Assembly (NCBI GenBank): GCA_051294905.1
Contig: CM119372.1
Coordinates: 4,838,001-4,902,000 of the forward strand
DNA from: Botryllus schlosseri
Taxonomy: Eukaryota
DNA: 64,000 bases
Reading direction: 5' to 3'
Shown here one piece after another: positions 6,311 to 58,834 of the stretch. How positions within the stretch are numbered: the stretch's first letter is position 1; each line of letters opens with the position of its first letter. The notes under the pieces are model-generated. The model was not told where the DNA came from and ran no database searches. It saw only the letters and a program-made list of their open reading frames with translations. The translations under genes and the position numbers were made by a program.

Positions 6311-7177
6311 CAGGGGTGTTCAGCCTTTTTTCTTTTCGTGGCCGCATTTTGATTGCGTGTAATAGCATACGGGTGCATTCCAGCGGACAGTAGTAATGAA
6401 GCACCTGGGGCGCCAAATATATATTTTAAATTGGCTTCTGGGCGACTTCGCATTACGCGTCGCCTTTGTGGAGTTCTGTGGCATCACTGTCTTCTTATGA
6501 AATACCCCACTCATGACAGTTCCTAATTGCAGAAGTAGAATGCTCCCTCCCGCAAGCTTATTATACGCACCGATATCACGAGTATTAATGTTATGAAACG
6601 TATTTGGGATTCGTTGTCTAGTCGCGCGTATTCCGAACATTCTTCGGTAATACTGGTAGTTTCACATATTACCATAAATATTGATCCCTTCTCGACCCAC
6701 GTTATCAGATTTACCACTAGAGCTGATGAAGGGCCATCTTCGAAATTTTTTGGCACATGAAATGATAATGCTAATGAAAATGGGTTGCTATTAATCACTT
6801 TGTTGCATGTTTTTTTTCTTGAACTCCCATCAGAATTCTTGTTTCAGTCAAAATATATATTGAAATCGCCCAAACGTCCCAGAAAAGCTTTCATTCGAGA
6901 GACGCACATGATTCCAAATCGTTATTTCTTTATGGTGGGGTCATTTTCCTCTGTGGTTCGTATTTGTACGGCGGGGCTTAAATTGCAAGGACACTGCTAT
7001 ATTAAAATCCACAAATGGCACTCGCGCGAAGCGCAGAGAAAACTTTCCAGTTGGATACAAATCACTCAAAAATTTGGGAACCATTCGTAAATTCAAATTG
7101 CATGTTGACGGCCGCCAACACACGCTAATTTAGTTATGTGTAGACGGCCTCATACGGCCGCAGGTTGGCCACCCCTG
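6311..7177. mobile_element. hAT-type MITE (CAGGGGTG...CACCCCTG)
   Basis: TIRs; TSD cactatag/cattatag (7/8); internal 6660-6750 is similar to 52800-52890. Confidence 0.82.
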
Positions 7178-9953
7178 CATTATAGCCTACAGCAGGGGTG
7201 GTAAATATACGGTCCGTCGTATATGCAGCCCGCGAAGCAACGCAGAGTAAATGAGAAAATGCTTGTGTTGTACAATCCGTTTCCATCAATGGATTTTAAT
7301 AAGAAATAACTCGCGCTTATAATCTCTCAAGACAGCAAATGTCGTTCTCACTATTACAACTTTTATCTTTTCCAAGTCCCAAGTGTGTATAATGTGCCTC
7401 CAAGGCGAATTGTCGCGTTATGAGTCGACATAGTTGGGCGCGTTGCAATTCCGGGTTCGTTTGTGGTTAACTTGGCAAAAAATGTTTTCGCATCCACAAA
7501 TATTTCCTTCCCCTGCACCTATGATTGAACCCAAAATCTAATAGCTAGCAAGATGTTGGATGCTCTTTACGCCATCTCGTAAATAATATCTATCCAAACG
7601 TTTGTGTGTGTCAATAAACAATACCTCATCGCGATGGACGCAGTTCACGAAATTATAGTCCTGCAAAGTAAGTTGCATACGTACGCGTGGGCTATTATTT
7701 ACATTTTGTTAAAACGCAAGTCTAAGTATTTTCAATGTAGCCTATTTATATGTGAGGTAATTGCATTAGACAACGTGTCTGATGCGTGATAATTGCATAT
7801 TGTGATGTGAACCGACGTCATTTGCTGGTGACTTTGTCGGACCATTATATAATAACATTCCTTTTCTCAGGCAGCGAAATGTCCGTCATAAATCATACCC
7901 GTGCGATTCGTTGGCGTAGATGACGACAGAGGATGAATAGGCCTATAAAAATGGCGGGGATCTTTCTTCGCCATTTTAGACTATTAGTTCATAGCAAACC
8001 TGTTTGAACAGTAATTGAGCAACGGTCGGTATGAAATAACAGTTTTCTGAAATCGACAACGCGCGCGAGTAAAAATTAACGAAATCATCCGTCGAAGGCG
8101 GGGGTTAATGTTCTGATCTGAGCGCCATAACACAGTGCATACAGGAATCCACGTTATATTCACTTCTTGTTGTGATATTGCATGCTGCACAGTGTACATA
8201 TTTCACTAAAATGCTGAAAAACATCGTCAAGCAGAAGAAAACATTACATATTGCGACTTATTATATACATAATTGTTATCCGTCTGAATACACAATACAC
8301 ATTGACTTCGTGCGCCTTAGTAAGATATCGAGTGTTTGCTCGGATTGCACTTGGGAATAAAGTACGACCGGCATCTTTGTCCTGACTGCAGCGGGGCGAG
8401 CTACATGGCAAAACTGGAGAGTGGTGCGAAAATCAAATACCTTGACCGAACACGCGTGCCAGTTTATTATTATCTTCTGTACAAGAAAACAAGATCAGCA
8501 GGTCATAACAATCACTCGGCGAAGACGATGAGATCATGTCTCATTCAAGTTTTCAGCTGATGCATAGTATATAATCCACGCGACTCTCGAAGGCAATCAC
8601 CCAGAACACAAAACGTAGTTTGCAATAACCGAACGGCATAAATCCTTCGATAACATGCGAGAACGGCTATGCATAATATCGTAGTTCAGTATCAGAATCA
8701 GTTTGATAGTAATTTAATCATTATTAAACACAACTAGACTGCTACAGAATGAAAATATAGGAAGGTGTCGAAACAACTTGAAGTAGTCTTTGAAATCGGA
8801 CACTTACCTGGGCCTATAGACGATGTAAATAAGAGTTCAGAAATATATGGGCTTCTCTTTCTGATAACCAAGGGTTTTGGTGAAATTTTTTCGTCGCCAA
8901 TGCTTATTTATATTCCGGAACGCGCTAAATACAGCGATCGTTGACAATATATGCCCACACTGATAAGTGTGTGATGGGCATGCACGATCTTGATAAACAA
9001 TAAACATATTCCAGGGCAGACGCGAAATTTCCAAAAATAAATGTAAGATATGCCGTCACAATGCCATATGATGACGTCACAATATTGGGATCACAGTGGG
9101 CGTCACTGATCTCTCCTTGTCTACGCTACTATAAAATCATATTGTTAGAAATCATTGACACGTAACAATTCATAAATTTAATTCATACTTCGACTATACA
9201 TCGTTCCGGATCGACCATTGAACGAAGCGCAATAAAATTTTCAAGCATTTTGGGCAAATAAAAAAGACGACATTACGAGGTGCCACAAAATTTCGCATCC
9301 ACGGGACCGCGGATTTCTTTTGTCGAAGGCATCACATGAAAGAAATTAATGTATGCGGTCGTTGTATTAACCATACAGTAAAACCATTCAACGGTAAAGC
9401 TCGGAATATCGCCTACTCTTTCGTTTCCACCGTGAAACGCATTGTGCCGTACTCGCCAGGGAAAGGCTCTGCGGCAGTAAAACATATGCAAATAAACGGC
9501 CTCGCATTATATCCTGGTTAGAGATGTGACCCAAGTACCTCGTCGCTTGTCGTAGTCAGGTAGCGAGCTGTGCGTAGCCGTGCGGTCGCGATGACAGTTC
9601 TCGCAAATAAACGGGATTTCGAAAACACCTGACGTGCACCGATGACTTCGTCGGCAGAAGGTTGAGTGCATGAGAAACGTCCAGTCCATCCAAATATAGC
9701 AGCCGCCAATTATGAGTAACGCAGCTGGCAATAAATACGCTAATGCATCTGGATCACTAAATTCGTTATAGGCTACTTCGATTTATTTGGGCTGGAGGAA
9801 ACGGGGCGACTGTCATACAGAGCAGGATAGAGTCATGCCGCAAGCAATGTAAGCCGTCTGTAAAACTAGAAATGCCCAGCAGTAACGACGATTAACCCGT
9901 CTTGTGGCTTAGCCGTAACCGTGAACAGCGTGGAATAGTTATGTTTCACTTAT

Positions 9954-10034
9954 GGGAGCAAACAGCTAGGTAGTTTCAAGTTGTGGAACGTGGCCAGAGA
10001 TCCACACCTGTGACTGCCTGTTTGTCGACCTCCC
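9954..10034 (+). ncRNA. mir-196: miR-196 precursor hairpin; mature 5p about 9967-9988 UAGGUAGUUUCAAGUUGUGGAA
   Basis: 18/22 identity to vertebrate miR-196a (first 12 nt identical). The 3' arm TCCACACCTGTGACTGCCTG (10001-10020) pairs with the 5' arm; basal GGGAG/CTCCC pairing; UG at -14 (9953-9954) and CNNC (CTTC 10040-10043). Confidence 0.92.
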
Positions 10035-10060
10035 GCAAGCTTCTACGACAGGGTATTTAA

Positions 10061-10116
10061 CAGTGTCGAATGGTGATCCAGGGACCAAGTTAGCCCTGGA
10101 TCGTTGTTGACCATGG
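10061..10116 (+). ncRNA. Unassigned pre-miRNA-like hairpin between mir-196 and the mir-10-like hairpin
   Basis: GTCGAATGGTGATCCAGGG pairs with CCCTGGATCGTTGTTGAC (18 bp including four G:U pairs and one bulge), 10-nt loop. The G:U pattern only works on the + strand. Confidence 0.45.
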
Positions 10117-10170
10117 TTGGCGGTATGGTACTAAAGCTTAATGAATTATGGAAGACTATCTATATAGTTA

Positions 10171-10249
10171 GCAATGTTTCGTTTACCCTGTTATGTAAGA
10201 CTTGTGAATAAATGCGCAAGTCTTATCCCCAGGGTGACCGCAATTTTGC
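10171..10249 (+). ncRNA. mir-10: Divergent miR-10-family precursor hairpin; predicted 5p 10184-10206 UACCCUGUUAUGUAAGACUUGUG
   Basis: Same length, first 8 nt and last 5 nt as miR-10a (UACCCUGUAGAUCCGAAUUUGUG); 14/23 identical. Stems TTACCCTG/CAGGGTGA and TAAGACTTGTG/CGCAAGTCTTA with an 8-nt loop; about 200 nt from mir-196. Confidence 0.68.
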
Positions 10250-11698
10250 GTTAGCTCGCCTGAAACCGGTACGCAAAGCTTAAAAAAGTACATGACTGTG
10301 CAATACACTATTTCTGTTTTGCTCTATCTCGTAGACCCCTAATTTCCGCTACTCAAATGCTAAAAATTGTAGAATATACGATTAGCTGATGCATAAGTAA
10401 ATATATAGGGGGGAATGTTGGTATATATCTGTATCCGATAGTGTATTATTATTACTTGTCGAGAACTCCTTATTTCAGATTTTCTGAGAGAAAAGAATAC
10501 CACGAGTTGGTTGATGGATGATTCAATATATGATCGCGAGATGTGCGTCCCTCACCAATGCTACAACGCGATTCCTCAATTGCGCATGTATAGACCAAAT
10601 GGATGCTTGAAATTGATTTGACAGGAGTGAGTTTATTTGATGTAAACGCCATCGCTGATGGAAAACGGGTAGAGGTATTTTACCATGCGCTGGTTTCAGA
10701 AAAAGGAGGTGGACCAGTTGAAAGATGCCAGCTCCAGAAGACTACTTACTCATCATCAAGACTTGGCAATGTGAATTGAAATTTCAACGCGTGATCGTGT
10801 GCTAGACTTCGTGAACTTTGTTGCTGTAAGCCGCGCAATACAAAAGTTATGGAATACACAAGTTTACTTTTTTCCAATACCTCTGGTCTTCAAATTCAAA
10901 GCTTCGATAATAGCTGGCCTTTCTGTCATGCATTCTTCAGCAACGTAAGGCGTGTCGGAATGGGTCATAATGGAGTAGTTAAGATTTTATTGCCTTCGCG
11001 CTTACAGTTGCAAGCGTTTGATGAGCCGTTTGTCCCAACAAGGGGGACAATTAAATGAAACAATTAGACAGTCGTCTTTTGAAGTTCGTGATAACAAGCC
11101 GTAACGCAGTTCTCCGCTGAATACAGTGCAGTATAGATACGTAGCTATTGTACCGACGTTTTAATCGCCTATCCGAAATGACCCCACGGTTGTTAAAATT
11201 GCTGGCGGTTTGCATTTGGCAGAAGATCAAACGAAACAGCCAATTCGATCAATATGTTAACCGCGCAATCCGCATTACTATTCATTGCGCGCAGCATGGT
11301 AGGCGGAACGCCCAGGCGTCACAAGAGACTGTAGAATCGCTTACTGTCTTTTCAATATACATTCGTTAAGGTACCTCCTAACAACATGCAGTATCACACG
11401 ACAAATGCACATTTAAATGTAATGTATTTCTTGAAGATTTTTCGTATCACATAAAATCATAAAGATTTGAGAGGAAAATATATATAAAAAAAGGAAAACG
11501 TCGTTAAAAAGTACGTTGATATATGGCTCTTGAGTGCGTTGCGTTACGTTGACACGCGTGTTTGTGAGTGGCATCGGACAGAATTCATTATCTTACGTCG
11601 TTTCGGCTTTCGAGTTCAACTCCCTCATGGTTTTATAGTCAGCGGTATGTTTTCAGGTATTCCGCAGCCCGATTATAAAAGGTCGCAGATATTTTCAA

Positions 11699-13597
11699 TC
11701 AGGTGTCCCCTTCTTCTTCTTCGTTATCATCCGACTTCTTATCAGCCGACGGCTGCTCTCTTAATTTCATTCGTTTCTTCTTCATCCTCCTGTTTTGAAA
11801 CCATATCTTGACCTGCCTGTCGTTAAGAAACACCCGCTTGGCAATTTGCAGTCTGTTGCGAGAAAGAAAAACACCCAGCGTTACTCATACGTAAACAAGT
11901 CCGCTAAGGAGTCGAATACTTACCGCAGCTCCCGACTTATGAATTCGTTGGCCAGGAATTCTTTTTCGAGCTCCTGCAGTTGAAATTTGGTGTACGGCTT
12001 CCGCCTTTTCCTGGTCGTTAGCGTGTGAGAATGGTGAAAATGAGAGGGGGTTATACTGATTGGACTGTACGAGAGATGGGAAGGGTAGTGCGTCTGACTG
12101 AAGCTCATCATATCCGGAGCTGTAACGAGGAACATCACACATCACTTTTTGGCACTACAGCGCCCAAACAGTTTTTTTCTTACCTGGAGGCATGTGCGAT
12201 ATATTGTAATCCACCGGCGAGTACGTTTGGGTTTGAGGAGGGTTGTGGAATGCAGGTTTTTGTGGGTGAGGGTAAGTCCCGTGAAATGCAGTAGGCGGGT
12301 ATTGATATGGGATTCTCTGGGCGTAGGGAGACGGATAGGCGGATGAGTGCGGTTCGAACGGGTTGCCGAAGCCAGGCCGTCCGTAGCTGCTTGCGAAATT
12401 CCCCTTTGGATCAAATAAATGACTACCTGCACAAGCGAAAATAAACATTATGACCCATCTCAATCTAAACATGTTTATGTGACCACCAAACCTACCGAAT
12501 GCTTGACTTTCGTATCCCATTGGCGCTCCCTGATAGGGTTGTTGTGTTACTCTAGAGTCGGCAATCTTCTTGTCGTATGGATGCACAGATGAATAACCAT
12601 TAGTGGACTCGGGGTGACCTGGAATCATTGGAAGTAGAGGGCACTTTCCTAAATAGCGGTCTCTCGAAGACGTACCCTGTCTAGAATAATGAATGTCATG
12701 GTCCGCGTTTTCTGACGTCATCTCATCGGCGCATCTGGTTTCGGAATATTCACTTTTGGGGGCGGATGCCGTATTCTCGGCGTGGTTGCGAAAATCTGAT
12801 TTCATAAAAGCCCGATCTTCTGCGGGTACTGAATTGCGTGCTAGCGAGGCTGAGTCGTTTCCCGGCAGCCCCCCTTGATATCCGAACGGCGACTGGGTGG
12901 TATGTGACACGTGGTACGGAGACCTGTCGTTTGAAACAGTTTTAACGGCGTACCGCGAACAGTCGCCAGGATTGCTTAAAAATATGTCCGATTCGGAGTC
13001 GGATTTTTGACACTGTAGCGCGCCGTCCGGACTCCGGTGCGAAGTGCCTGAATTTTGATTCGCTTCAGACTGATCGTTAAGGATTGAGTAGGTTTGCTGC
13101 GGTTGTCCGTCTACAGCCACTATTTCCGAGTCAGAGCACGATATCGTCCTTTGCTGCATGTGGTGTACCAAATTGAGAGGCTGACTGGATTCCGTTAACT
13201 CTGAATTCGCCCGTTCAATATCGGCCAACGATTGCAATCCGTAACGCTTCATGGGCGAGTATCCATTTTTCGGACTATCGTGATTCGCCGGCAGCCTCGG
13301 TCCGTATCCATATTTTGTAGAATCGCCAGTATCCGGGCACCGTCTGTGAGATCGAATTTCATTTTTTGCAACAATCGCTTCCCTCGAAGACCCGACTAAG
13401 CACGGTTCCTTAACAGGGTCCTGGACTTGCGCGGCGTACTGATACGGTCCCCCTGTTACTCCAGGCGCTGCGAAATATTCTCCCTTACCGCTCAATGTGC
13501 TCGGCCTCCAAGACTCAGACACGCATAGTGATATAGGCGCCTGGGACGTGCAGTATAAAGGGTCATAACCGCTACTGTATCCCATAAAAGTCGACAT
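11699..13597 (-). CDS. Hox12: Posterior (Abd-B class) Hox transcription factor, ascidian Hox12 type; 4 exons: 13597-12496, 12426-12184, 12119-11924, 11852-11699; 564 aa
   Basis: The spliced frame gives the homeodomain [60 protein letters not shown]. Three GT-AG introns (69, 64, 71 nt; donors GTAGGT, GTAAGA, GTAAGT) have compatible phases 1, 1, 2. Total 1695 nt ending in TGA. The NEFISRE and RRMKKKR signatures fit PG12-like/ascidian Hox12 (from memory, not from a tree). Confidence 0.9.
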
Positions 13598-27234: not shown

Positions 27235-29514
27235 CAGGGATTGGGAGCAGCCGTAAATTTGCATTGCTCCAGCTCCGGCCCCGGAGCTTTTTTCTATCAT
27301 ACACTAGCTCCGGCTCCGGCTCTGTAAACTATCGAAGGTGTCTGTCTATATCAGGGGTGGGCAACCCGCGGCCTGCGGGCCATATATGGCCCGGGAGAAG
27401 GTTTTGAGCAACCCGCGAGCTAATTTCCCATTATAGTATCGAAATCCTGTTATATTATCGAAATTGAATTGCTCAGATTGTGAACTTGCAAGGCCAACCA
27501 AAAATATGATTAGTCTGGTCGCGACACTTGGGATGATGATGACTAAAATATCAGTTCCGACGCATTTGCAGATCCAGGGTCCAGCCACATTTTTAGTAAA
27601 TCGTCGTACATTACAATAAACTAAAAGAGTAGTAAAATGTTTCTTCACGCTTCGCGTGTTTAATTGTCACACGATTTCTTGCTTTGTAGCCTACTCTCTC
27701 CTGAAAATGAAAAAACGCCTGATTTAGCCGATTGAGTCTAACTATATTCGCAATTACGAGAGAAAGTATTTTCGCGTTTGCGCTCGCAGAAAGATCGTCG
27801 AGGATGAAATGTAGGCACAAAATGATTGTCGTATATTAGCGGAAATCATCGATATTGATATGTCCAGATGCCGAATAGTCCTGTTCTTGCAAACTGAGCC
27901 CAGCGGGCGGTATACAGTCGACCCACAATATACCCAAGTAATAATAATATTACCTTGGAAATTTTTACGCGTCTGGCGCGGCTAGTGGGCAGCGCACTCG
28001 TTCGTCAATTTCATGTGCATGGCCCTTTAGCCGAAAAGGCTGGCCACCCCTGGTCTATATCGATTACTTATTTACCCGAAGGTTAGTTATCTATAGTAAT
28101 CTAGAGTCTGTCAGCCGTCAGTAACATCGGGTGCAACAACGAAGACGTAGGTGCCGCCGTGTCGGCTTGTGGCGTCATAGTGAATACTTCTCAATTGTCG
28201 ATATCATCATAGTTGCACTAAAACGCACTTTACTCCATGCCATTGCTGTGTACAGTATGAAAATTCTGGTGCGGCGTTTTAACACTGGCACTGTACTCGT
28301 TAACATTAAGCCATACAGCTCAATCCAATCTTTAAATAAGCGATAATTATTCAACTGTAACTGTAGTAAGAGCAATCTGGGCGGACATCACGACCTGATC
28401 AATAGAAATTCGATTTGTACCAAATGGCCAATGGTTTGACGTTCGATATTGGTGCACTCGTTACCAGTCCATCCGGTGTCGATCAAGTTTATCGAAATAT
28501 AATATTTTCCCGTTGAAACAAATCAAATAATCGAATCGAACACTGTGCCATGCACATTGCGCCATGCCCATAACGAATTAAACTATGCAGTATGCACATT
28601 GCACATTTACAAATCACAGTGCGCGATAATCCGGGAATACTAGAGATTAAGCAGACATGAAGAAGGAATTTACGAAACAGATGATTACAAATTGGAAATC
28701 GCGTATCAAATCAGTAATTTGTCTCCAACATAAAATACCATAAGGTCCTGACATCGCATTGAGTAGCTCGCCCCGCGACAATTGTTCGCTGAGTGTAACG
28801 GCGTTTTGGGCTACTCTTCTGCCATCCCCTATTCACGCTCGAAAATCCTTACTGGAGTGAATGACGATCATGCGCAGTAATGAATTCCAATTCGCGTGCA
28901 TAATTGCATACTCAATAACTGTCCAATTTCGCCCACCGATTAAAGAACTATCACGAAAGAACGAGTATTTGGTCATCCGATTCATAGCAACGATGAGATG
29001 GAATTTCTCGGCTCGCGCTCGTTATATCGACATGTGCAACGAAATAACGTTTTTATCCTCTCTCCCGTTTCGCGTAATACATAGTGATCATTATTTTCGA
29101 ACCGTACAATTGGCCAACAAGGTTGTGCTGATGATGAAATTGCGGGTATGCCGAATACCACAATATTCACGGGCATATCTAGCAAAACGAGGTTCGGCAC
29201 TGATATATGAAAATTGAGCATTTAACATATGAATGCTTTGCTGTTAAATCCCAAAGAACATGGTTAGTCGGAAAAGGTCGCGTTAAAGAGGAAAAGATTC
29301 ATAATTTCGCGAAGGCCTGCTGTTGAATTATGTGAACTCAGCAGATATGGTTGTTGCATATATAATAGCATCTTATGAAATATGTCGGAGCCGGAGCTAC
29401 CCCTCAAATAACTAGCTCCAGCTCTGGCTCCGGTTGAATTTTATGTAGAGCTCCGGCTCCGGTCCCAGCTCCGGTAAAAATGCACGGCTCCGGGGCTCCG
29501 GCTCCAAAGCCCTG
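27235..29514. mobile_element. Second family E copy, inverted, inside the first
   Basis: CAGGGATTGGGAGC...GCTCCAAAGCCCTG termini; exact TSD CTGGTAAC (27227-27234, 29515-29522). Confidence 0.88.
27352..28052. mobile_element. hAT-type MITE family B
   Basis: CAGGGGTGG...CCACCCCTG TIRs; exact TSD GTCTATAT. Confidence 0.92.
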
Positions 29515-30304
29515 CTGGTAACGACCGCACAAATATCTAATCTGAAGCCATTCGATATATTTGGTAAATAGTGGCTTTTTGTTGATAAGGTCGCGACATG
29601 CGCTCATTTCTGCAGTTACATCTGAACAAATGGCACCATTTCAAGATTAAATCGGACTGTATCGCTTGATATTAACGAGCGCAGAACTGGTATTAAAACA
29701 TCACGTCACTGTTTTAATGCTGTACAATGTACAATGTACATACAATAATGGGGTAAATTGCGTTCTCGTGCGGCTATGACGTCATCGACAGACGGCACGA
29801 AGTAATTATCACGTCACATGTCTTATATATACCTCCACGAAATGATGGTTCCTTGCGACGGCTACAACCGAAGATAGTTGTCGGAGCTGGAGCAGCGGTA
29901 TCAATGAGCTCCGGAGCATGGAGCCGGAGCTGATTCATCAGAGAAGAGAGCTCCGGAGCCAGAGCTGGAGCAGTTCAAAATTTACGACTGCTCCAAAGCC
30001 CTTCTCGCAGTCCCTCATTTCGGTTAAGAGATGTTCAATTGTTCATTCAAGTCGAATGGAGCAGGTGGTGGTTAGACAATTTCAATCCCTATTCCCTTCC
30101 CACTCACAATCGGAGCCGCGACCGCTGTACTCACGCCATTAACAGCATTGTCCACTTGGTTGTCGCGTTTGCTTTACGCAGACACCAGACAATTAATAAG
30201 TTCAATCTACACATAAATTTGCGAGACATGATCAACAGAATATTACCGTACACCGTAAGATGGCGCAGTCAGATACTTTATAATGTTGTACGTTGTACCG
30301 CAAG

Positions 30305-30810: not shown

Positions 30811-31886
30811 ACCGCAAGCAGTCGTAGTCGTACTATAGAGTTGTACCAAGCTCGACTGACATAATTTCATGTCTCAACACAATGTACATTCGACCGTGCC
30901 ACTCACTTGCAGTGAAACCAATTTGTCGTCGGAATTTCCACCAGGTCTGCAACATTATGTGTGGCATGAGCAACGGCGTGCACATTTCAGAAGTAGCCTA
31001 GCAGTGAAACCTACATTAATTCGTCATAGCAGAGCAAGCAATAGTTGTTGTTATTGATTGCATGGCGTTTGGTCGCGGCCTTGTCATCTTCCGCGTGATA
31101 AGACATGGAACTTGGTAGCTGCTATGGTTTTATGGTGACTTGCAAAAGCAAAACCTGTTTTTCATCTTGAGTTTAGTAAGGCAATAAATACACGCAGCAT
31201 GGCTTTTTAGACAAAACTTTTATACTTTAGTAGTAGTAATGAGGGGCGGATCGACAACTTTCCTAGTCCGACTCCGATCCTGTTTCTTTAAAACGGAATC
31301 CGGATTCAATCTGACGGTACCAAAAGAGTCTGAATCCGGCTCCGAACAAAAATGAAGCAATCTTTCCAATATCCACTACGGATTTGGCTAAATGTTGCAC
31401 ACTACTCCCCTGTAGCCTACTCCGGCCGTAGCATTAAAAGTACGAATCCAGCTCCAGCCAAATAAAATCTGGCGGATATCTAGTCCACGGACAATCCATT
31501 CCCCGCACTACTAAGCAGGGGTATTATAGTGCCGACCTGCATCTGCATCGGACATGACCCCGCATCTCAGAGGTGTCTCAGCGGTTGAACATACCACCAT
31601 AATAGTTAGCTTTACAAGTTGAAAACCAGTTATAGTACAATACCAGTGAATTCGAAGGTCCCTGGCATATTATCCCGATACATTACCGTCAAAAACCGTG
31701 ACTAATTTTTTATTGTTGAAGAGAAAATTGAAAACGCACATCTGGCGCTTATCACCTCTAACGTCCGCCGTGGAAACGTTCAGTGTTAAATTGTATCAAA
31801 TTAACTGGATATTGATAGGTGAAATAAAAGAATTGTTGGTAAAGCGAACTCGGCAAGTGTTGGTGGAATTTCAGGTCGCACTAAAA

Positions 31887-33106
31887 CAACCTATTGCTCC
31901 GCGCGCCAAATGTGACCCGCGAAGCAATTCTCGACACTAGTTATAATATCAAAATAATAAATTAGCAATGCGATTTATTGTGAACTTGGAAGGCCAACCA
32001 AAAATTTAATTAGCTTGACCGCGAAATTTGGGATGTTGATGACTAAAATATCAGCTCCGACATGTTGGCGTAGCCAGGTCCCAGCTACATTTCCGTACGT
32101 CTTCGTACTAGGGTTGCATTTAAAACAAAATTCAATTTAAAACAAACATGTTTAAAACAAGGCCCTAATTTAAAATATTGTTTTTAAGCCATGGCGTCAC
32201 GAATATTAAGCTGCGACGTCATAGTGGATTGTCATTGACAATTGAAAATATAGGGTAAATATAGCTCCTTTGACGAAATATCTGTAATATTAATGTTGAA
32301 CCGACTATTTTTCGGGTTCCAGCCATCCCATATCGATATACGTAGGCTATATTGGGTGGCATAATTGTCCGTAGGCTCAGACGACAGGTTTTTTGGAAAG
32401 TAGTTACATAATTATGGCAATACAACTTTAACAAAACACATTTTTATAAAGGTCTTTGTTTAAAACACTGTTTGTTTCAATACAAACCTACTTCGTACGT
32501 GACCGTAAAGAAGAATATTCCGTGGCAGATTTATTTGACTTGGTATTTTTGTTAGCACTTCGCACGATTTATTGTCACTCGTTTTTTTTTTCTTTTAGTA
32601 TTGGTGCCCCTACTGATAATTAAAATTCAAAAACTGCATCCAATTCACAGAATTCAGTCTAACTATATTCACAAATCGCAATTATAAGAAAAGGAGTCGT
32701 CCAACATGCGACTACGCGCCTGCACTCGCAGAAAGGTCGTCGGCGATAAAACCTTTGCACAAAATGATAGACGCATGTTCGCCGAAGTCTGCGATATTGA
32801 TAAGTCCAAGCGCCGAATAATCCTGTCCTTGCCAAATGAGCTCAGCGATATACAGAGGCGCCGCGCAATATCTGCAAGTAGCATTATTATTGACTGAATT
32901 CATTCATTACCTTTGAAAAGATTTTGCGCTTCGCGCGGCTAGAACATGAATCCACTCATAGTTTTCACGATATATTTTAATGCATAATAAAATAGATCTT
33001 GTTTTCAACGTTACCTAATCCGGTTCGCTCCTATCTCTTCAAGTGGCCCACGCAATGGTTCGTAAATGTCAGGTGGCCCTTTGGCCGAAAAGGTTGGTCA
33101 CCCCTG
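31887..33106. mobile_element. hAT-type MITE family B-related copy with a damaged left TIR
   Basis: Right end AGGTTGGTCACCCCTG; CACTAAAA on both flanks (31879-31886, 33107-33114). Confidence 0.8.
32109..32490. mobile_element. MITE family A copy nested in a family B element
   Basis: TAGGGTTGCA...AAACCTA termini; exact 8-bp TSD CTTCGTAC (32101-32108, 32491-32498). Confidence 0.9.
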
Positions 33107-33890: not shown

Positions 33891-34698
33891 TTGTACATCA
33901 GGAGTCGGTGTTCTGCAAAACATCAAGAACGAAGATAGAAAACTATGTCGCTTCTGCTGTGATTCCTAAAGGATCTCAATGCCCAAACATGCTAAATTAA
34001 GGATCAAAGTTGAATCAAGACGGGTTCAATTTGATTCGACGTCTCATAAATCTCTGCTGATCGCGGTTGTTTAGTTCCAACCTTAATTAGCAATTTAGGA
34101 CACACGCGTTAGCCAACTGAGATGAAGTGGCCATGAATCGCGTTACTATAAAGCACAAAGACAAATAAAAGACTACACTAAATTAAATCGATATTAGGCG
34201 TGACTGTTTAAAGAAATGTTGTAATGTTCAGACTCATATTTACCACACCAACATACCTCGCCATGGTCTACAGAAGAACTTATACCATAGCGCGGCGCGA
34301 CGATTAAACACGTGCTTGGTGTCGCGTACCAATAAAAATCCTGTCAATATCTTGATTCGGTTACGACTGTGTGTCCTCGCGGAAAGCCGCTTTAATGTCG
34401 GTGAGGCAGCCTTTTAACAGAGACTGTTAAATTTAACAACTGAATTTTGTAATAAAATCGGCGTAATGCGTGCAGAAACATCATGAGATCTGTCGCTGGG
34501 CACGGTAATAAATTGTTATACGAGCTCTCAGTTGCGCCAATTTCGGCAGAGTGCGGGACAAGTCCGTTTGCGTCGATCTGTCCAAGTGTCCATCATATTA
34601 TGTCTTGTAGACATATTGTTTCATGCTGAACATTTTCAAAATTATGACCAAAGCAGATCATAAGTGCAATCTCATCCTTCAGCAACAGCATTTTGCAG

Positions 34699-35009
34699 GA
34701 TATTTACAACACCACCTTCCTCACACCCACACGCACCACCGCGCGCCGTCTTACGGGGTCCTCCATCCGCCGCACGGCCACCAACAACTTCACACCGCGC
34801 ACCACCAAAGGAAGAAGCGGCAGCCGTACACCAAGTCGCAGATTGCGCGCCTAGAGAAAGAATATAAGATGAACAACTTCATCACCAGGCAGAAACGAGA
34901 GGAAATATCGCGGGACCTGAAACTCACCGACCGGCAAGTGAAGATTTGGTTTCAGAATCGACGCGTTAAGGATAAGAAATTGCGGCAACGGGAAATTAGA
35001 GAAAATCAG
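34699..35009 (+). CDS. Hox13: Hox13-type gene, homeobox exon
   Basis: His-rich linker, then [61 protein letters not shown]20 and V54 (WFQNRRVK) are PG13 hallmarks. Bounded by TTTTGCAG and CAG|GTGTGC (phase 0). Confidence 0.93.
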
Positions 35010-36139
35010 GTGTGCTGGACATTTCTGTGTTAGCTAATACATCACTGTACAGTGTACAGAATTAGCCTGCATATATAGATCGAGAGTAACACAAGATCGT
35101 AAAGCATGGGTTCTTAAACTATTGGTCGCGAAGGGTATACTTTTGGGTGGCGACCGCACCAGAGCGATCTTATAATATATATGTAATATTTGCTGAATTT
35201 ATTACAACAACAAATGTTTGTACGTTTCTAAGGTAACTGCCGTGGGTAACCTACTATAGCCAATAAGCGAGACACGCAGAAAAGTGATTGCGGCAATACA
35301 GCTTGATACTGAAAATGTACCGACCCTATTTGTATTAAGCAAATTGGTTCGATGTACTGATAAGATTTGTCAGACATTGGTGTCCCCCTTCAGGTAGACT
35401 AATGGACAGGGTCAACTGAAAATCGGTATAAATGACGCGGAATAATCCGGACGTTCGAGAGGATTTTCCTTATTTTTAGTCAACACCAAATCAGTATCGT
35501 AAAAATGTGGGTAGTCCTGGGGTCGAGCCAAAGTGGTGAGAGTTTTAGTCAACACACCAACATTCCCGGTAAATATATCAAAATCAGCTGTTTTTAATTT
35601 CGGCAAACCGAATGAATGAATGAATTTTAAAACTCCTATCGGGATTTCATAATATGGTAACCCTAGTGTTCCCGAAATGGTATAATTTTGGCGGGTTATA
35701 ATCGGGTAGGGAGAGGGAGGAAGAGAGCGGCTAATAACTGAAGCACCTCATATTTTTAATTATTTTTGACTTTTCAGAAATTAAACTATCTGTATTGTCA
35801 ATTGTGTAAGAACAGTAGATTCCTATAGTATCGATTAACAACGTCGGATACCGTGTAACGTGCGTCAACGGAACTATTAGACACAGGCATTTTTGGGTCG
35901 ACCTTTTCCTCCCCGGGACACATGACGATGTGAAGTTTTGGCTAGCATACGCCTTGGCAAAGTGCGTTGCCAAAAAGACCGGCGATCAAACCTTGGTCTG
36001 AAATGACCGTCGCTGGCTGACCGAAACCTTCCATATTGATATGCTCGGTCGTCGAAATAGTCGGCACCAAATAGTCCCGTCCTTGCAATCGGAGCGTCGC
36101 GGTGCCTTCGCGGCCCGCACAGGAAAATAATGCAATGCA

Positions 36140-38105: not shown

Positions 38106-41100
38106 ACGTAAAGCAGTGTTTTAAATCCCACGTGGCTTGCCTTGTCTATAATGTTCCTTGGTGCTCCATTTTTGCTTATTCTAATTCGTCAAGCATCAAT
38201 TGGATCAACATATAGACTTTGATCAACACCACAGTATATAATTCCGAAGTAGGTTCTGTTTTTGGTGCGTAACATCTTTCGGGTTTGAATACACAGTGTG
38301 TATTACACACTCTGTTCGCAAATAGTATACAGACAGAATCGTTGACTAAACCAGAAATTATGCAGGCACATCTCATATAGCGAGAAATTCAAAGTATTTG
38401 AAGAGCTTCTTGGAGGTGCATATCTTGAACAAGCGATATACAAAATACAATGTTCTCTTCATTTCTCTATAAGTTGCAGACGATTACCGAAAATATCCGG
38501 TTCATTTAAATATGAATATACTATTCAATCAAAATTAACGGTTGTATATGCTAAAAACAGAAGACGGAGAATTACAATAGCAAATCCAATCTAGGACCAA
38601 CATTCCAAAATAATACGTGATAGGTACACGTAAAAATTACACACGTAATATCACGCACACAGTTCCAGCCGTACGGTATGAATTTTTTTTATTAATTTGT
38701 AAATTTCAGCATCTAAAATCCGCACCGCAATCAGTACTTCAAAAGCGAAGCGTGGATTGAAAGAGCTATCGCAATATGCCGGTTCAGTCGCGCCGCGGCG
38801 AGAAGGTGACGCCGAAAACCTGCCGGGATGCGTTCGCCGAGACTCCATTTTGTCTGCCACGGCACATCCGGCGAAGCCCGCGTCTCCGCGACTGACGCGG
38901 GATCGGCGAGATTTGATTGCGTTTAATAACGGTAGATTACCGCCGAGTTTCGAAAGAATTTGCGCGGCCAATATATCATTTTGTGGCGTAATGACGAGCT
39001 TCGCGCGGATCTTGGAAGCGACGGCGTCGCGCCGGTCAAATATCTTCAAGACGCGGGGAGGTACGGGAAAACGTTCGAGTATCGGTTATGAGGACTTTGG
39101 CCGGACAGTGTAGCGAACCAAGCTAATTATGTTTTCAAATATTAAAAAAAAATTTCCTTTGTCACATAATACCAGTATACATCACCCTTGTCGATTTTAA
39201 CGCGAAGCATTCTCTTATGACACAAACACGGTATGTTTCATTTGATTCAAGGCAAATATGGCGCAATCTCGTAAAGCGAAAAATTGTTTTTACCCCACGC
39301 GCTGTTCAATTTCACATTCTAACTTCTACATTCTAACTGTGACTTAATTGCGACTGTGAACCACGTTTCGATCTTTCGTACGTAATCAAGTACAAATGAA
39401 CACGAGCTCGATGTAACTGCAAAAGATCCATGCTCAATATCATGGAATAGCCCCGTGAGTGATCTCCATACAATAAGAAGATAGTGCATTGTTGTAGGCA
39501 CCGTGACCGTCACGTAGGCGAAGGAACAGTTGGGTTATCGTGTCAGTACGACCATTTTCTTCTCAACGTCAGCACGGTGTGCCGAGCTGCAAGCGGGGAG
39601 GTTATGGACACCGGTTTGGAATGAATGTCATCATCCTAACCTGATTGGGGTCTTGGGATCTAGAAGCACACACTCTACCGCTACGCCATCTAGTCGAAAA
39701 CACGCAACGCCCTCTAATGATTCTGTTGTATCAATCCCAAAGGAGCTAGAATGGTATCAGGGCAGTGGATCAGTCAGCATGACCAACTTGTGAGACTGGA
39801 AACCTAAATCCGAATTGGTTGACATTCAATTAATAACATTCGACTCCTTGATTGTATTTCGACGCCGGCCGTTATCACACCGCATGCAAGCGTCGACGAT
39901 GAACGTGATATATTCGCGACGCCAATTCTCTTCACCAAACGATATCAATATTGATGTGCAACCTTGATAAATCAGTCCGCCGGCTCGTCGGTGCGTAAAA
40001 ATAGGCGAATTTTCGATCAGTGTCAGGAATATTTGTGTGAATCATAAAAACGGATCAGATAACGTCGACCAAAGCCTGGAAAATCATGGCACGATTATAT
40101 TTCATCTATATTCGATGGCTTCTATTAAGTTACTCACTGGGTATGGTCGTCAGGTTACGGTGACGTCAAGTGGAACTTGTACACGCGAACGGAGACTTTG
40201 GATAAGCCGATGCACTCGAACTGAACCTCGATCTGTGTAATACACGGCTCGTCTCCTGGTACGAATTTTATAGACGAGGTTGCCGTGCACACATGCGGCA
40301 GGGGAGCTTTAATGCACGCGTTATCATATAGGTTATATTCTCGATATTATTGGCGAATTTAATTACATTAGGTTATACGAAAGCAGTGTATATTTTCATG
40401 GGTTCCGATATATAGGCTGCAAACGGCCCTCTTTGCTATTGTACGGACCGAATTATAACAAAACCAAATATTGAAAACGCGATGAGAAAATATCGAATGA
40501 CCTTCACATAAAAACGGACCAAAACGCACAATTGATGAAAAATTCCCGGCACGCGCGGAGCGATGATTCTCAGGAAACCCAACACCTTCCACGCTAGCAA
40601 TATTCCGTAACTATTCAACGGCACAATATTATCTGATGCTACAAATCGTTTACGCGCGTAAAATGCCCATACGTTCATTGATTGTACGAAAAAGACATGA
40701 TTTTACAACAAAAGACAATTATTTTCCGTTGCCAGCACGGAGCGATTACTATATGGCGAGTTCAAAAGGTTAATGTTTCCACTTGGATGCAAAGTTGCTC
40801 GTTACTGATCCATCAGGTACGACGGTAATTTTCGTCGACCGAATCCAATAACTGCCCTTGAAATACCAATTGTGGGTTATCACACTGTATATATGAAAAT
40901 AGGCAAAGTTCGTAAAGCTATTCACGAAGCGTTCCAACCACGGGATCTATAGTACGTAGTGTGTATGAATGTAGAGACTGGTCGTGAACAATTAGGTTAA
41001 TTGTCGCTAGTGGGCAGGCAGTCACGCGAGTGGCAATTAAGCAAATGTTAAGTGCTAATCTGGTGTGGCGGTCAGGCAGGGACAGATCTAACCACATGAA

Positions 41101-48129: not shown

Positions 48130-49261
48130 TAGGGTTGCATTTGAAACAAACGGTGTTTTAAAAAATCAATTGAAAACCAACATGTTTTAAACAGTGTTTT
48201 AGTGTTTTAAACAGAGGCCTTAAATTTTTTCTAAGTTGTAAAATTATGCCACAATTGTGTAAATCAGGGGTGGCCAACCTTTTCGGCTAAAGGGCCACAT
48301 TCAATTGATGAACTTGTGCGCGGACCACCAGCCGCGCCATGCGCGTAAAGTTTTCAAAGTTTATAAATGAACTAGGTCAATACTATTATTACTCGAGTAT
48401 ATCACGGGTCTGCTGTATACCGGCGCTGGGCACAGTTCGAAAGGACGGGGCTAATCGGCATCTGGACATATCGATAACGAAGGGTTTCGGTAATATGCGA
48501 CAATCATTTTGTGCCTATACATTTCATCGTCGACGATCTTTCTACGAGCGCAAACGCGAATTGGGAATATAGTTAGACTCAATCTGGTAAATTGGGTGTT
48601 TTTTCATTTTCAGCAGGGGGCAGGTTACCAAGCAAGAAATCGAGTGACAATTAAACACGCGAATCGTTAAGAACAATTTTACTACCATTTTAGTTTATTG
48701 TCATGTACGACGATTTACTAAAAGCGTGACTGGACCCTAGACCTGCAAATGCGTCGGAACTGATATCTTACAGTCATCAACATCCTAAGTGTCGCGGCCA
48801 GACTGATCAAATTTTTGGTTGGCCTTGCAAGTTCACAATACGAGCAGTTCATTTTCGATAATATAATAAATTTAGGAACTTACCTCGCGGGCCACTCAAA
48901 ACCTTCTAGCGGGCCGCATATGGCCCGCGGGCCACGGGTTGGCCACCCCTGGTGTAAATACTTTCGAAAAAAACAAGTTGTATGAGCCCACGGACAATTA
49001 CCATCCGATTTAGCTGACGTATATCGATATGGGATGGTTGGAACCCTCAGAATAGTCGGTTCAATAGTTATAGTCCAGATATTTCTTCAAAGAAGCTATA
49101 TTTACCCTATATTTTCAATTGTCAATATCAAAACATCATAACGCCACAACTGAGTATTCGTGACGTCATGGCTTAAAAACACACTAAAAAATGTTTTAAA
49201 ATAAGGGCCCTGTTTTAAACATGTTTGATTTTTATTGATTTTTGTTTTAAATGCATCCCTA
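48130..49261. mobile_element. MITE family A copy split by a family B insertion
   Basis: TIRs intact; exact TSD CGATCAAT (48122-48129, 49262-49269). Confidence 0.92.
48265..48951. mobile_element. hAT-type MITE family B (CAGGGGTGGCCAAC...GTTGGCCACCCCTG)
   Basis: Perfect TIRs and exact TSD GTGTAAAT; reverse-complement homolog of 27352-28052. Confidence 0.93.
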
Positions 49262-49999
49262 CGATCAATACGAATCCTTTATTTTCTTGATTCCATCCCC
49301 ATTTACGCTTTTTCAAATACGACTGTATAATTCCGCCAGCAGCGGCATCGCAGACAAAACAACTTCGGTATGCCCTTAATTGTCTTTATAATGTCATTAG
49401 CATTACAATATTATTAAGACTATACATGAATTTATTCAATACAATTATCGTTTGGATGAGACTATAGCGGAGGCTTCTCTGTAATGAATACGAACCATAA
49501 TGATCGCCAAATTTTAAGTTATTTTCTGACTTTTCATCCCATTTCGATTATTGAAATGCTCATTTAGCCTTGAAGGCTCAAGATTTGAATTTGCCAACAA
49601 ACCCGACGTAGATAAATTGAAAAGTATCTGAGTACCCCTGTTATAGATTGGTGACACATACACACATGTTGGTTGCATTAAAAAAAATTGTTTTTCAAAA
49701 CCTGTTTTCAGTGGTCATCAGACCATTTGTGGGTCTTTTGCTTCTTGTTATGCGACATAAATCCACTGGGTGAGTTTTGAGACATGACATCAAATGACAG
49801 AACTCCATTTGGGGATGCGATTTCGTCAAGTATTGTTTATGGCCCGAAAATGTCATACTTTGGTATCGCTGGACAACGAACAAAGGTCGCATAATTATGA
49901 GGACGAAAAATTATAAACAGTATATTAAGGACTCGAGATAATTCCACGCTTATATTTCATTGAAAGTATACTTAAAATCGCTAATTTTACTCGACCAGA

Positions 50000-50581
50000 T
50001 TGAAGCGATCACAGCGTATCCGACCTAGAAAATGTCCTGTTTATTTGCATCTTCCTTGGATTGGGAAAGTGTCCAACAGGTTTGAAAAACAAATTAAATC
50101 GTCAGTGAGCCATTGTTTTTCACAAGTAGAACCACAGATAATCTTCATGACGAAATCTCTGATGCCTGCAACGCAAAAGGATGTCCTACCTGCGACAAAT
50201 CAAAGCAACATAATATATGAATACACGTGCCGATGTGACAGTCGGTATGTAGGTCGCACGTCTCAGCGCTTGCAGCAAAGAATTCGCCAGCATGTCCCAC
50301 GGCAAATTAGAATAAATAATGTTTCTCCAACTCCTTCATCGCAGTCTGTTGACACACTGCGTGATTATGATCAAGTTACTGCTTGTAATTCGGCTATTGG
50401 ACAGCATCTCTTATCCCATCCAGAATGTGCTGGTCATTACAATGACAGTCAATTTTCTATACTCGCTCGTGGCCGTTCTCTTTTTCATTTAAAGGTCCTG
50501 GAATCTACGATCATAAAGCTACGAAAGCCGATTCTCTGTCGCCAGAAGGAACGCCTCTACACTCTTGGAATATTTCATTAA
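50000..50581 (+). mobile_element. 5'-truncated Penelope-like retroelement: RT thumb/linker remnant plus GIY-YIG endonuclease ORF
   Basis: Uninterrupted 193-codon frame with VYLHLPWIG, KD.LP, NIIYEYTCRCDSRYVGRTSQRLQQRIRQH, SAIGQHL and LESTIIKLRKPILC motifs typical of the PLE GIY-YIG domain; no true start codon. Confidence 0.88.
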
Positions 50582-52193: not shown

Positions 52194-53377
52194 CAGGGGT
52201 CGCCAACTCAAAATAGGTCGCGGGCCACTTTTCCAAATTCCTGGAGGCCGCGGGCCGCATGACATCAATATCGATATAAAAGTAGGCAACGCAGTTCAAC
52301 AACCACGTCTGATAACTCTACGTTATTACAACGCTGTGCTTTCTAACATAGGCGACGGTTATAGTCACCACAAAAGAACTAATATTTTATTGAACAAACA
52401 CAAATACAACAAAAAGTATCATGATCATCAATGTCATTATATTTTGGACTATGAGCTGTACACGATACCTGACAATGACAACACTCTTTAGCCGCTAAAA
52501 CGGGGGTGGCCAACATTTTTGTAATTCACGGCCGCATTTCGCGTACTCATGTAGCCTGCGGCGACATACCGGTGGTTAGTCGTGATAAACTAGCTGGGGC
52601 CAAATACCCACGTTATCATGTCCATGTCCATTGCCGGTACACTCCGAACTAATCTATATGCACATATCGGCTGACTATGCGCACCAAATCGTTAGTAGTT
52701 TTGTTGTAAAGAGCCACAGAGAACCAATCTGTAGTCGCGCGAAGCGCGAAAAAATTTTCATGTTCATGAGTGAATTTCGTCAATAAATATTAGTATAGTT
52801 TCACATATCACTATAAAATATTTATCCTTTCTCGGCCAATGTGATCAGATTCCCAGATACAGCTGATGCAGGGGGTATCTGCGAAAACTTAGGGTTGTTA
52901 TTACAAGTGTCGACAGCCGCATAATATTCCTTCTACTGCTGCAGATTGGCCACCCATGGATTGAAGAATCAATATTGGGGTTAGCTATACACGGTAGGCC
53001 TACTTGCTAGACAACTATCTCTTCGTAAAGCATGGTCTTTTGGAGCGCCCGAAGTCGTTTTGCAGGCTTCTCGGTCTTGGCAGTGGTGGGCCATTGCACG
53101 TCAAGGCAATATGCCCATTCGTACCAGCAAATTCTTCATCCATGGAATGATATTACCATGCCGAAGCCGTATCAACTAGTGAGTAATAGTAATAGTGGGC
53201 ACATAGAATGGCTCACATTGAAAAACAACAACATTATGTTTCAACTGAAATCAATTTTAGCGTTTCAACATGATTTACTAAGCGTTTTTCTGAATTTTTT
53301 TCAAATCAGGTCGCGGGCCGCAAAATAGGACCTCGCGGGCCGCATGCGGCCCGCGGGCCGCGTGTTGGAGACCCCTG
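52194..53377. mobile_element. hAT-type MITE (CAGGGGTC...GACCCCTG; GCGGGCC repeats) with a nested element at ~52501-52958
   Basis: TIRs and exact TSD ATCTAGTC; the inner CGGGGGTGGCCAA...TTGGCCACCCATG segment is related to 6311-7177. Confidence 0.9.
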
Positions 53378-58425: not shown

Positions 58426-58834
58426 ATGAGTGCTTACAGTTACGGCTACGATTCTGGCGCAGCTGCCGCCGCTGCGTCTGGATACTTTGGAAACCCAAGA
58501 GGCGCGTCAAGTTTTGGTAACGTCGCAGGAGGATACAATGGGCCGGCGTCGACCTACATGCCACACTACGCCTCATCCCAAAGCATCGCGGGACAAGGAC
58601 CGCCGATTGGTGCTTCAGCTGGGGGCAGTCCCATCGGGCACGGAGGACCACCGTCTCAAAACCTTCACCACGCTACGGGGTATGCGGGAGGCCCACCGCC
58701 TCACTCCCTTGGCTCGCCAAGTGGTGGGGGGTTCCACGGGTTAGCTTATGGCAGCCCCGGACACACTTACGGCAGCATTATGAACCAATATTCCAACTGT
58801 GGCGGACTGGGGGATGCGGTTGTACTCCATCAAG
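58426..58834 (+). CDS. First or early coding exon of a third plus-strand transcription-factor-like gene (MSAYSYGYDSGAAAAAASGYFG...), possibly Hox10; remainder not found in the window
   Basis: GC-rich ORF with Gly/Ser/Tyr/His/poly-Ala composition typical of Hox N-termini. Acceptor TTTTTCAG lies 15 nt upstream of the ATG; donor CAAG|GTGCGT is phase 1. Identity is inferred from position only. Confidence 0.65.

Follow-up and report, generated by a model that had tools for sequence, protein, structure and literature searches.

Is mir-196 accompanied beside the posterior Hox genes of tunicates by a second, miR-10-like microRNA (miRNA), or is such a pairing a peculiarity of the genus Ciona? The question is raised by a stretch of 64,000 nucleotides from Botryllus schlosseri (GenBank assembly GCA_051294905.1, contig CM119372.1, positions 4,838,001 to 4,902,000; the whole stretch is referred to below as the window), in which three hairpins, here called H1, H2 and H3, lie close together at positions 9954-10249. 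An earlier note, made from the letters alone, had read them as miR-196, an unassigned hairpin and a hairpin with the seed of miR-10. We consider the locus to be the orthologue, in a tunicate other than Ciona, of the mir-196/mir-2278 pair of Ciona intestinalis (with a probability of roughly 0.75), because its miR-196 arm matches that of Ciona, the layout of the two loci is common, the 5p arm of the second hairpin likewise holds UACCCUGU and a UAAG, and both loci are linked to Hox genes.

The hairpin pair and its Ciona counterpart

The interval 9940-10260 folds at -111.1 kcal/mol, compared with -86.8 +/- 4.6 kcal/mol for shuffled sequences (z -5.2; 0/100 shuffles as good), and three plus-strand hairpins are resolved within it. 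The fold statistics of this interval and of each hairpin on its own (Table 1) confirm the three consecutive same-strand hairpins of the earlier note, and their separation, which it had put at 25-55 nt, was measured at 30 nt between H1 and H2 (10035-10064) and 59 nt between H2 and H3 (10112-10170), which is close. From the 3p end of H1 to the 5p start of H3 there are 161 nt, and the spacer between H2 and H3, folded as 10105-10175, is unstructured (z -0.1; 82/200 shuffles as good). The 321-nt cluster was found once in the 495.5-Mb assembly and is therefore not a repeat. When 12,784 90-nt windows from both strands of the 64 kb were ranked by folding energy, H3 came 47th, H1 102nd and H2 179th; the three are strong hairpins, yet not unique within the window.

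H1 is a single unbranched stem with the mature sequence in its 5' arm. This arm, UAGGUAGUUUCAAGUUGUGG (9967-9986), equals the sequenced C. intestinalis miR-196, UAGGUAGUUUAAAGUUGUGG, at 19/20 nt (the C. savignyi column is the same as that of C. intestinalis) and the predicted Halocynthia roretzi miR-196 at 19/20 nt, which bears out the earlier description of the first hairpin as nearly identical to miR-196. Counted by eye, the arm agrees with the Rfam mir-196 consensus at 18/21 positions, including positions 1-12, and the family model RF00256 can be aligned over its full length to 9958-10029, with 22.7 bits and an E of 0.02 when 801 nt were searched (2.87 when the whole genome was). Judged by its sequence, H1 is mir-196, the match of the mature arm being stronger evidence than the Rfam score. 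Like vertebrate mir-196 (RF00256), it holds the mature miRNA in its 5p arm, shares the bases at 5p positions 1-12 and has Abd-B-class Hox neighbours; the differences are that its loop and the 3' part of its mature sequence diverge and that the nearest Hox gene lies on the other strand. Vertebrate mir-196 is located between Hox9 and Hox10, and we know of no miR-10-like neighbour beside it.

Two further mir-196-like loci came from searches beyond the window. A candidate second mir-196 at C2:4446438-4446506, which scored above the true locus with RF00256 (34.5 bits), was rejected as a paralogue; it consists of a long inverted repeat, with arms that are part of a dispersed repeat matched 90 times in the genome. 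The locus in question (L001, G000:C2:4446377-4446567), ~400 kb upstream of the window, carries UAGGUAGU...GUUGUUG and is a mir-196 mimic, a trap for automated annotation. A scan of metagenomes for mir-196 returned four loci, three of them without a hairpin. The fourth, L007 (Ga0210059_1007131, 1486-1570), folds into a hairpin at -31.3 kcal/mol and has a 5p arm identical to that of H1 over 21 nt, with no similarity to the window otherwise.

H3 comprises 29 bp in one unbranched stem. Its 5p arm, UUACCCUGUUAUGUAAGACUUGUG, has the letters that had been attributed to it, confirmed at 10184-10206: it starts with UACCCUGU from 10184 and ends in UUGUG, like miR-10. The counterpart of H3 in C. intestinalis was found in the supplements of Hendrix 2010 (PMC2884542), where mir-196 is listed at Scaffold_81:252622..252674(-) with 9,373 5p reads, and a hairpin named 'mir-2278' at Scaffold_81:252341..252397(-), on the same strand and 224 nt downstream of the mir-196 hairpin. 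The 5p arm of mir-2278, CUACCCUGUCUUUAAGCUG, has 913 reads and the 3p arm 6; the C. savignyi counterpart of the 5p arm, CTACCCTGTATTTACGCTG, carries a conservation flag (PMC2884542). About 98% of the Ciona mir-2278 5p reads begin one base upstream (CUACCCUG...), and ~14 reads begin at the U (PMC2884542). Through egg, larva, early embryo, gastrula, late embryo and adult, the commonest read was counted 108/87/76/156/82/7711 times for mir-196 and 7/0/7/1/4/514 times for mir-2278 (PMC2884542), and the stage profiles of the two in these published reads are parallel and adult-dominated. The tight same-strand pairing of mir-196 with a hairpin that carries UACCCUGU is thus conserved, both members of the C. 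intestinalis pair having been sequenced and the 5p arm of mir-2278 being kept in C. savignyi.

The second hairpins were compared by eye, with no alignment tool; the 5p arms of H3 and of mir-2278 in both Ciona species have UACCCUGU and then UAAG in common. In layout, each locus has two same-strand hairpins 160-225 nt apart with mir-196 first, and the Ciona pair is posterior Hox-linked according to Heimberg & McGlinn 2012 (PMC3394115). The loci differ at position 11 of miR-196 5p (C here, A in Ciona), in the base preceding UACCCUGU (U in H3, C in Ciona), and in the remainder of the H3 arm, which diverges greatly outside the first 9 nt and UAAG. They also differ in what lies between the hairpins: H2 here, whereas the visible Ciona flank has a 6-bp stem and an outer 5-bp stem, with 111 nt of the interval not displayed. 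In the 380-locus Ciona table, no miRNA starts at 2522xx, 2524xx-2525xx or 2527xx-2528xx, that is, between or beside mir-196 and mir-2278.

Ciona miR-196 and the miR-10-family miRNA miR-4069 are both placed upstream of posterior Hox genes in the review of Heimberg & McGlinn 2012 (PMC3394115), which describes miR-4069 as a Hox-embedded member of the family, 'unique to Ciona intestinalis', with possible seed shifting. From position and sequence class (miR-10 family, Hox-embedded, beside miR-196), we infer that mir-2278, which was given a novel number in Hendrix 2010 (PMC2884542), is miRBase cin-mir-4069. The earlier note could not say whether the layout was known: the linkage is already in print for Ciona (PMC3394115), and the new element is that a second and more distant tunicate genome, outside Ciona, has it too. 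In a literature search that did not cover subscription journals, miRBase or MirGeneDB, linkage of miR-196 with miR-4069 was found in PMC3394115 only, and none was found outside Ciona. The window locus and the C. savignyi column argue against the view of miR-4069 as unique to C. intestinalis (PMC3394115). Extension of the mir-196/miR-4069-type pairing past the genus Ciona would make it a conserved feature of tunicate posterior Hox regions rather than a Ciona oddity, and nothing established is overturned by it. The coordinates given here frame three questions: whether two different seeds reach posterior tissues from one transcript, whether the second miRNA derives from miR-10 by divergence, and what role, if any, H2 has.

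We infer co-transcription and processing in this organism from the published Ciona small-RNA reads and from how closely spaced same-strand miRNAs generally behave; the targets are putative. One plus-strand primary transcript would contain H1 and H3, and Drosha would cut ~12-13 nt above the base of each stem; in the predicted structures of both, 13 nt separate the base of the stem from the expected 5p start above it. Dicer would then release miR-196-5p (from 9967) and a 5p miRNA containing UACCCUGU, the latter from 10183 if the cut falls 12 nt above the base, as in Ciona, or from 10184 if it falls 13 nt above, as in H1. Both miRNAs would be loaded into Argonaute and would repress mRNAs by seed pairing, plausibly posterior Hox transcripts. 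Because the dominant Ciona 5p reads begin one base upstream, which makes UACCCUG the functional seed there, the working seed of H3 may also be UACCCUG rather than the ACCCUGU of miR-10. H2 would be an RNA stem on the plus strand inside the primary transcript, too short for a canonical Microprocessor substrate. Two raw RNA runs compared with 9000-12000 provide no test either way: X24 gave 44 reads (41 partial), none of them over 9909-10211, and X21 gave 0. Two DNA runs, labelled 'organism B' and 'organism C', were rejected as evidence of cross-species conservation, their contigs being near-identical to the window (0 differences over 9917-10171, 0 over 10120-10270 and 2 over 10171-10785) and coming from the same or a near-identical genome.

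Several points weigh against orthology to the Ciona pair, or against the identification of its members. H1 lies below the gathering score of RF00256 (22.7 vs 55.4 bits), no family reached its gathering score in an Rfam scan of the whole 64-kb window, and the best Rfam miRNA family for H3 is mir-57, at 12.3 bits and E 3.2 against a gathering score of 44, which is not significant. The equation of mir-2278 with cin-mir-4069 is drawn from position and sequence class. A Halocynthia survey is without a miR-4069 homologue, and 'acccugu' does not occur in its supplements; the 1,500 nt to each side of L007 are free of ACCCTGT, so that the pairing of H1 and H3 may not be universal, or the L007 organism may have lost it. 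The miRNAs and the Hox gene nearest to them stand on opposite strands, and a 7-mer site for miR-196 is present in neither Hox 3'UTR of the window. A rival reading is that H3, or the cluster as a whole, consists of chance hairpins with no function; in its favour, 46 other 90-nt windows of the 12,784 in the 64 kb rank above H3. We regard that explanation as very improbable: a same-strand pair at like spacing has been sequenced as small RNAs in Ciona, H3 has a z of -6.9, and the locus is single-copy rather than a repeat.

Table 1. Features of the hairpin cluster and of its Hox neighbourhood, in window coordinates
Feature	Position	Strand	Details
H1, mir-196 primary hairpin	stem 9954-10034	+	folded 9950-10036: -33.1 kcal/mol, z -3.3, 1/200 shuffles as good; 5p arm predicted 9967-9986(88), 3p predicted ~10001-10022; basal stem GGGAG/CUCCC
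ACAGGGTA	10048-10055	+	exactly complementary to nt 1-8 of the H3 5p arm; between H1 and H2
H2, short hairpin	stem 10065-10111	+	folded 10060-10112: -21.1 kcal/mol, z -3.3, 0/200 shuffles as good; 15-bp uninterrupted stem, 10069-10083 with 10094-10108; 10-nt loop
H3, miRNA-like hairpin	stem 10171-10249	+	folded 10165-10255: -35.5 kcal/mol, z -6.9, 0/200 shuffles as good; 5p predicted 10184-10206 (or from 10183, Ciona-like cut), 3p predicted ~10217-10238
Posterior Hox gene	11699-13597	-	exon 1 13597 to ~12182; stop 11699-11701
Homeodomain halves of that gene	exon 2 11923-12030 (N-terminal), exon 3 11702-11854 (C-terminal)	-	Pfam Homeodomain E 5.5e-5 and 2.9e-9
ACAGGGTA 8-mer	12673-12680	-	H3 5p seed match in coding exon of the minus-strand Hox gene
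Homeobox exon of second posterior Hox gene	34611-35033	+	Pfam Homeodomain E 1.7e-20
ACAGGGT	35406-35412	+	7mer-m8 match to H3 5p seed, provided that the arm begins at 10184; candidate target site

The short hairpin H2 and the spacer 8-mer

Of the three hairpins of the cluster, H1 and H3 are miRNA-like, and H2 is too short for a third canonical miRNA. The stem of a canonical animal pri-miRNA extends over some three helical turns, or roughly 33-35 bp with the lower stem counted in. H2 falls short of this length, with 15 bp, or 18 bp with one bulge: its uninterrupted stem has 11 Watson-Crick and 4 G.U pairs, and three more pairs follow past a 1-nt bulge. It is without a lower stem, and its flanks fold on their own. 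Because H2 has 18 bp at most and no lower stem, it appears too short for canonical Drosha/Dicer processing. At the same time, no other stem on either strand of the 64 kb reaches 15 bp with a loop of 3-12 nt; in 20 block shuffles, such stems averaged 0.1 per strand. The stem is specific to the plus strand because of its four G.U pairs, the minus-strand fold being weaker (-19.4) and differently paired. A plus-strand-specific stem that is unique in 64 kb fits a plus-strand RNA with all three elements.

H2 is thus a non-random RNA stem of the plus strand and probably not a canonical miRNA; that it serves as a structural spacer, or is a decayed element, is likelier than that it is a third miRNA. 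It could alternatively be a third, non-canonical small-RNA precursor, for instance a short-stem hairpin processed with the help of its neighbours. Such a role would suit a non-random, strand-specific stem between two good hairpins, but we think it decidedly unlikely, given its 18 bp with no lower stem, its lack of an Rfam family, and the absence of any miRNA at the searched coordinate prefixes between or beside the Ciona pair in the 380-locus table. No Rfam family was above threshold in the H2 region. Two matches below threshold were rejected: mir-619 (E 7.8), and the C/D-box snoRNA SNORD113 at 10097-10163, with 20.3 bits vs a gathering score of 36 and a C-box that aligns as UGUUGA with the consensus UGAUGA.

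The 8-mer ACAGGGTA in the spacer between H1 and H2 (Table 1), within the presumed primary transcript, might serve in alternative pairing or as a self-target site, or be what is left of a local duplication. CCCTG or CAGGG occurs five times within 10048-10235.

Origin of the second miRNA-like hairpin

The likeness of H3 to miR-10 is confined to parts of its mature arm. No match to the Rfam mir-10 family (RF00104) was found at E <= 10 in either the 801-nt or the 101-nt search, and the weak mir-57 alignment is anchored on UACCCUG/CAGGGUGA. What the earlier note had called a miR-10-seed hairpin keeps its miR-10-like letters from 10184, but has no precursor-level match to RF00104, and the dominant 5' end of its Ciona counterpart is shifted one base upstream. 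With mir-10 and its family (mir-57, mir-993, mir-1991, mir-100), H3 has in common the 5p start UACCCUGU, the UUGUG end and linkage to Hox genes. It differs in that the middle of the arm is unrelated, in a dominant 5' end that, if Ciona-like, may sit one base upstream, and in its posterior site, both Hox genes of the window being of the Abd-B class, rather than a site between Hox4 and Hox5, where vertebrate mir-10 is located.

We searched the genome with the anchor TACCCTGT-N10-TTGTG, which we take canonical miR-10 to fit. Among nine matches, H3 is the sole one in a hairpin, and the other eight are without one. Because H3 is the only hairpin on this anchor, an unchanged mir-10 seems absent from the genome, although a diverged copy would escape the pattern. 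A genome scan with RF00104 gave no mir-10 among the 60 scored of 45,133 candidates, a sample that cannot show absence. The apparent lack of an unchanged mir-10 agrees with published statements, namely that mir-10 was not identified in Ciona (Hendrix 2010, PMC2884542) and that miR-10 was lost from tunicates (Woltering & Durston 2008).

Where H3 came from is best discussed as a choice between descent and new birth, which we hold to be about equally likely, each being possible at well under even odds. On the side of descent, H3 would be a diverged descendant of a posterior mir-10 paralogue of ancestral chordates, beside which mir-196 arose or came to sit. According to Heimberg & McGlinn 2012 (PMC3394115), copies of miR-10 are present in amphioxus both between Hox5/6 and between Hox9/10, Ciona miR-4069 belongs to the miR-10 family, possibly with a shifted seed, and mir-57, the sole Rfam miRNA family returned for H3 (E 3.2, not significant), is a member of the same family. 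Descent is also consistent with the combination of UACCCUGU and terminal UUGUG in H3, and with the finding that no other hairpin in the genome lies on the anchor. On the other hand, a start of 8 nt and an end of 5 nt are little evidence of homology, there is no precursor-level likeness to Rfam mir-10, the dominant Ciona reads begin one base upstream so that their seed is not that of miR-10, and the RF00104 scan of 60 candidates cannot show that a separate mir-10 is absent. On the side of new birth, H3 would be a tunicate-specific miRNA, born de novo in the pri-mir-196 transcript, whose miR-10-like start would be convergent or coincidental: Rfam gives no mir-10 match, the arms of H3 and Ciona mir-2278 diverge greatly past the first 8-9 nt, mir-10 was not identified in Ciona and the hairpin received a novel number (Hendrix 2010, PMC2884542), and Woltering & Durston 2008 has miR-10 lost from tunicates. 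New birth would, however, require a large coincidence, namely the exact 8-mer that starts the best-known Hox miRNA arising inside a Hox cluster, and this 8-mer is unchanged in three species, with the remainder of the arm drifting, so that the conserved part is the miR-10-like part.

The earlier note had proposed two other histories. In one of them, the Hox miRNAs were brought together during the break-up of the tunicate Hox cluster, the canonical mir-10 from between Hox4 and Hox5 having moved beside mir-196. Tunicate Hox clusters are indeed dispersed (PMC3394115; Woltering & Durston 2008), the seed region is identical, and no canonical mir-10 was detected in the genome by the anchored pattern. 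We nevertheless judge this move improbable, since no sign of a rearrangement from the anterior segment is seen, both neighbouring Hox genes are of the Abd-B class, and the precursor is not mir-10-like. For H3, a posterior mir-10 paralogue offers a simpler origin than translocation does, because in amphioxus a copy of miR-10 is already located between Hox9 and Hox10 (PMC3394115), and the break-up scenario is not needed. The other proposed history, in which the layout records how mir-196 arose, found no support: the similarity of H1 and H3 is at shuffle level, their 5p arms being matched or beaten by 1902/5000 shuffles and the hairpins by 1427/5000, and a common origin of the two was rejected. 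So was a common origin of H2 and H3, whose alignment score was not above shuffles. For H2 and H1, 128/5000 shuffles aligned as well, which is not significant after five comparisons.

Returning to orthology with the Ciona pair, a bolder extension is that the two hairpins form an ancient tunicate-wide bicistron, possibly ancestral to Olfactores, with H3 as the seed-shifted survivor of an amphioxus-type mir-10 paralogue between Hox9 and Hox10. We offer this as speculation, somewhat less probable than either descent or new birth taken by itself. Were it true, tunicates would never have lost a Hox-linked MIR-10, mir-196 would have been born next to a mir-10 copy that vertebrates later lost, and that history would have left H2 and, between the hairpins, the 8-mer ACAGGGUA as its remnants or regulators.

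Posterior Hox neighbours and other features of the window

The position of the cluster beside posterior Hox genes, as first noted, was verified by two Abd-B-class homeobox genes in the window, identified by Pfam and by matches in the Protein Data Bank (PDB). The nearer one, on the minus strand, has a homeodomain split after ~30 residues by a 68-nt intron (11855-11922), and its best PDB matches are Hox-C9, Hox-A13 and Abd-B; its exon 1 (481 residues) had no relatives in a protein search. This gene is convergent with the miRNA cluster and ends ~1.45 kb from H3. The second homeobox exon, which among natural PDB entries is matched best by Abd-B, Hox-A9, Hox-B13 and Hox-C9, is on the same strand as the miRNAs, ~24.5 kb downstream. 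From their signatures, we presume the minus-strand gene to be Hox12-like and the plus-strand gene Hox13-like. The two posterior Hox genes stand head to head, ~21 kb apart.

Each of the two genes carries a match to the H3 5p seed (Table 1). The ACAGGGT site is ~375 nt past the stop of the Hox13-like frame and before an ATTAAA at 35780, and so likely falls in the 3'UTR; by a simple estimate, chance would yield ~0.05 such 7-mer sites over roughly 750 nt. Both this site and the one in the coding exon of the minus-strand gene are weak candidates, and each could be due to chance.

Ten further open frames of the window held no other Pfam domain at cut-off. A 198-residue frame at 49985-50578 (+) has a weak GIY-YIG match (E 7.8e-4; 20.1 bits vs a cut-off of 22.6) and may be the remnant of a mobile element. 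Elsewhere in the window, 90-nt windows at -36 to -43.5 kcal/mol, equal to or better than H1-H3, were observed at 7111-7250, 29381-29530 (-), 29881-30010, 31861-31960 (-), 38801-38910, 48871-48970 (-), 53271-53410 and 58651-58760, with single long stems among them.

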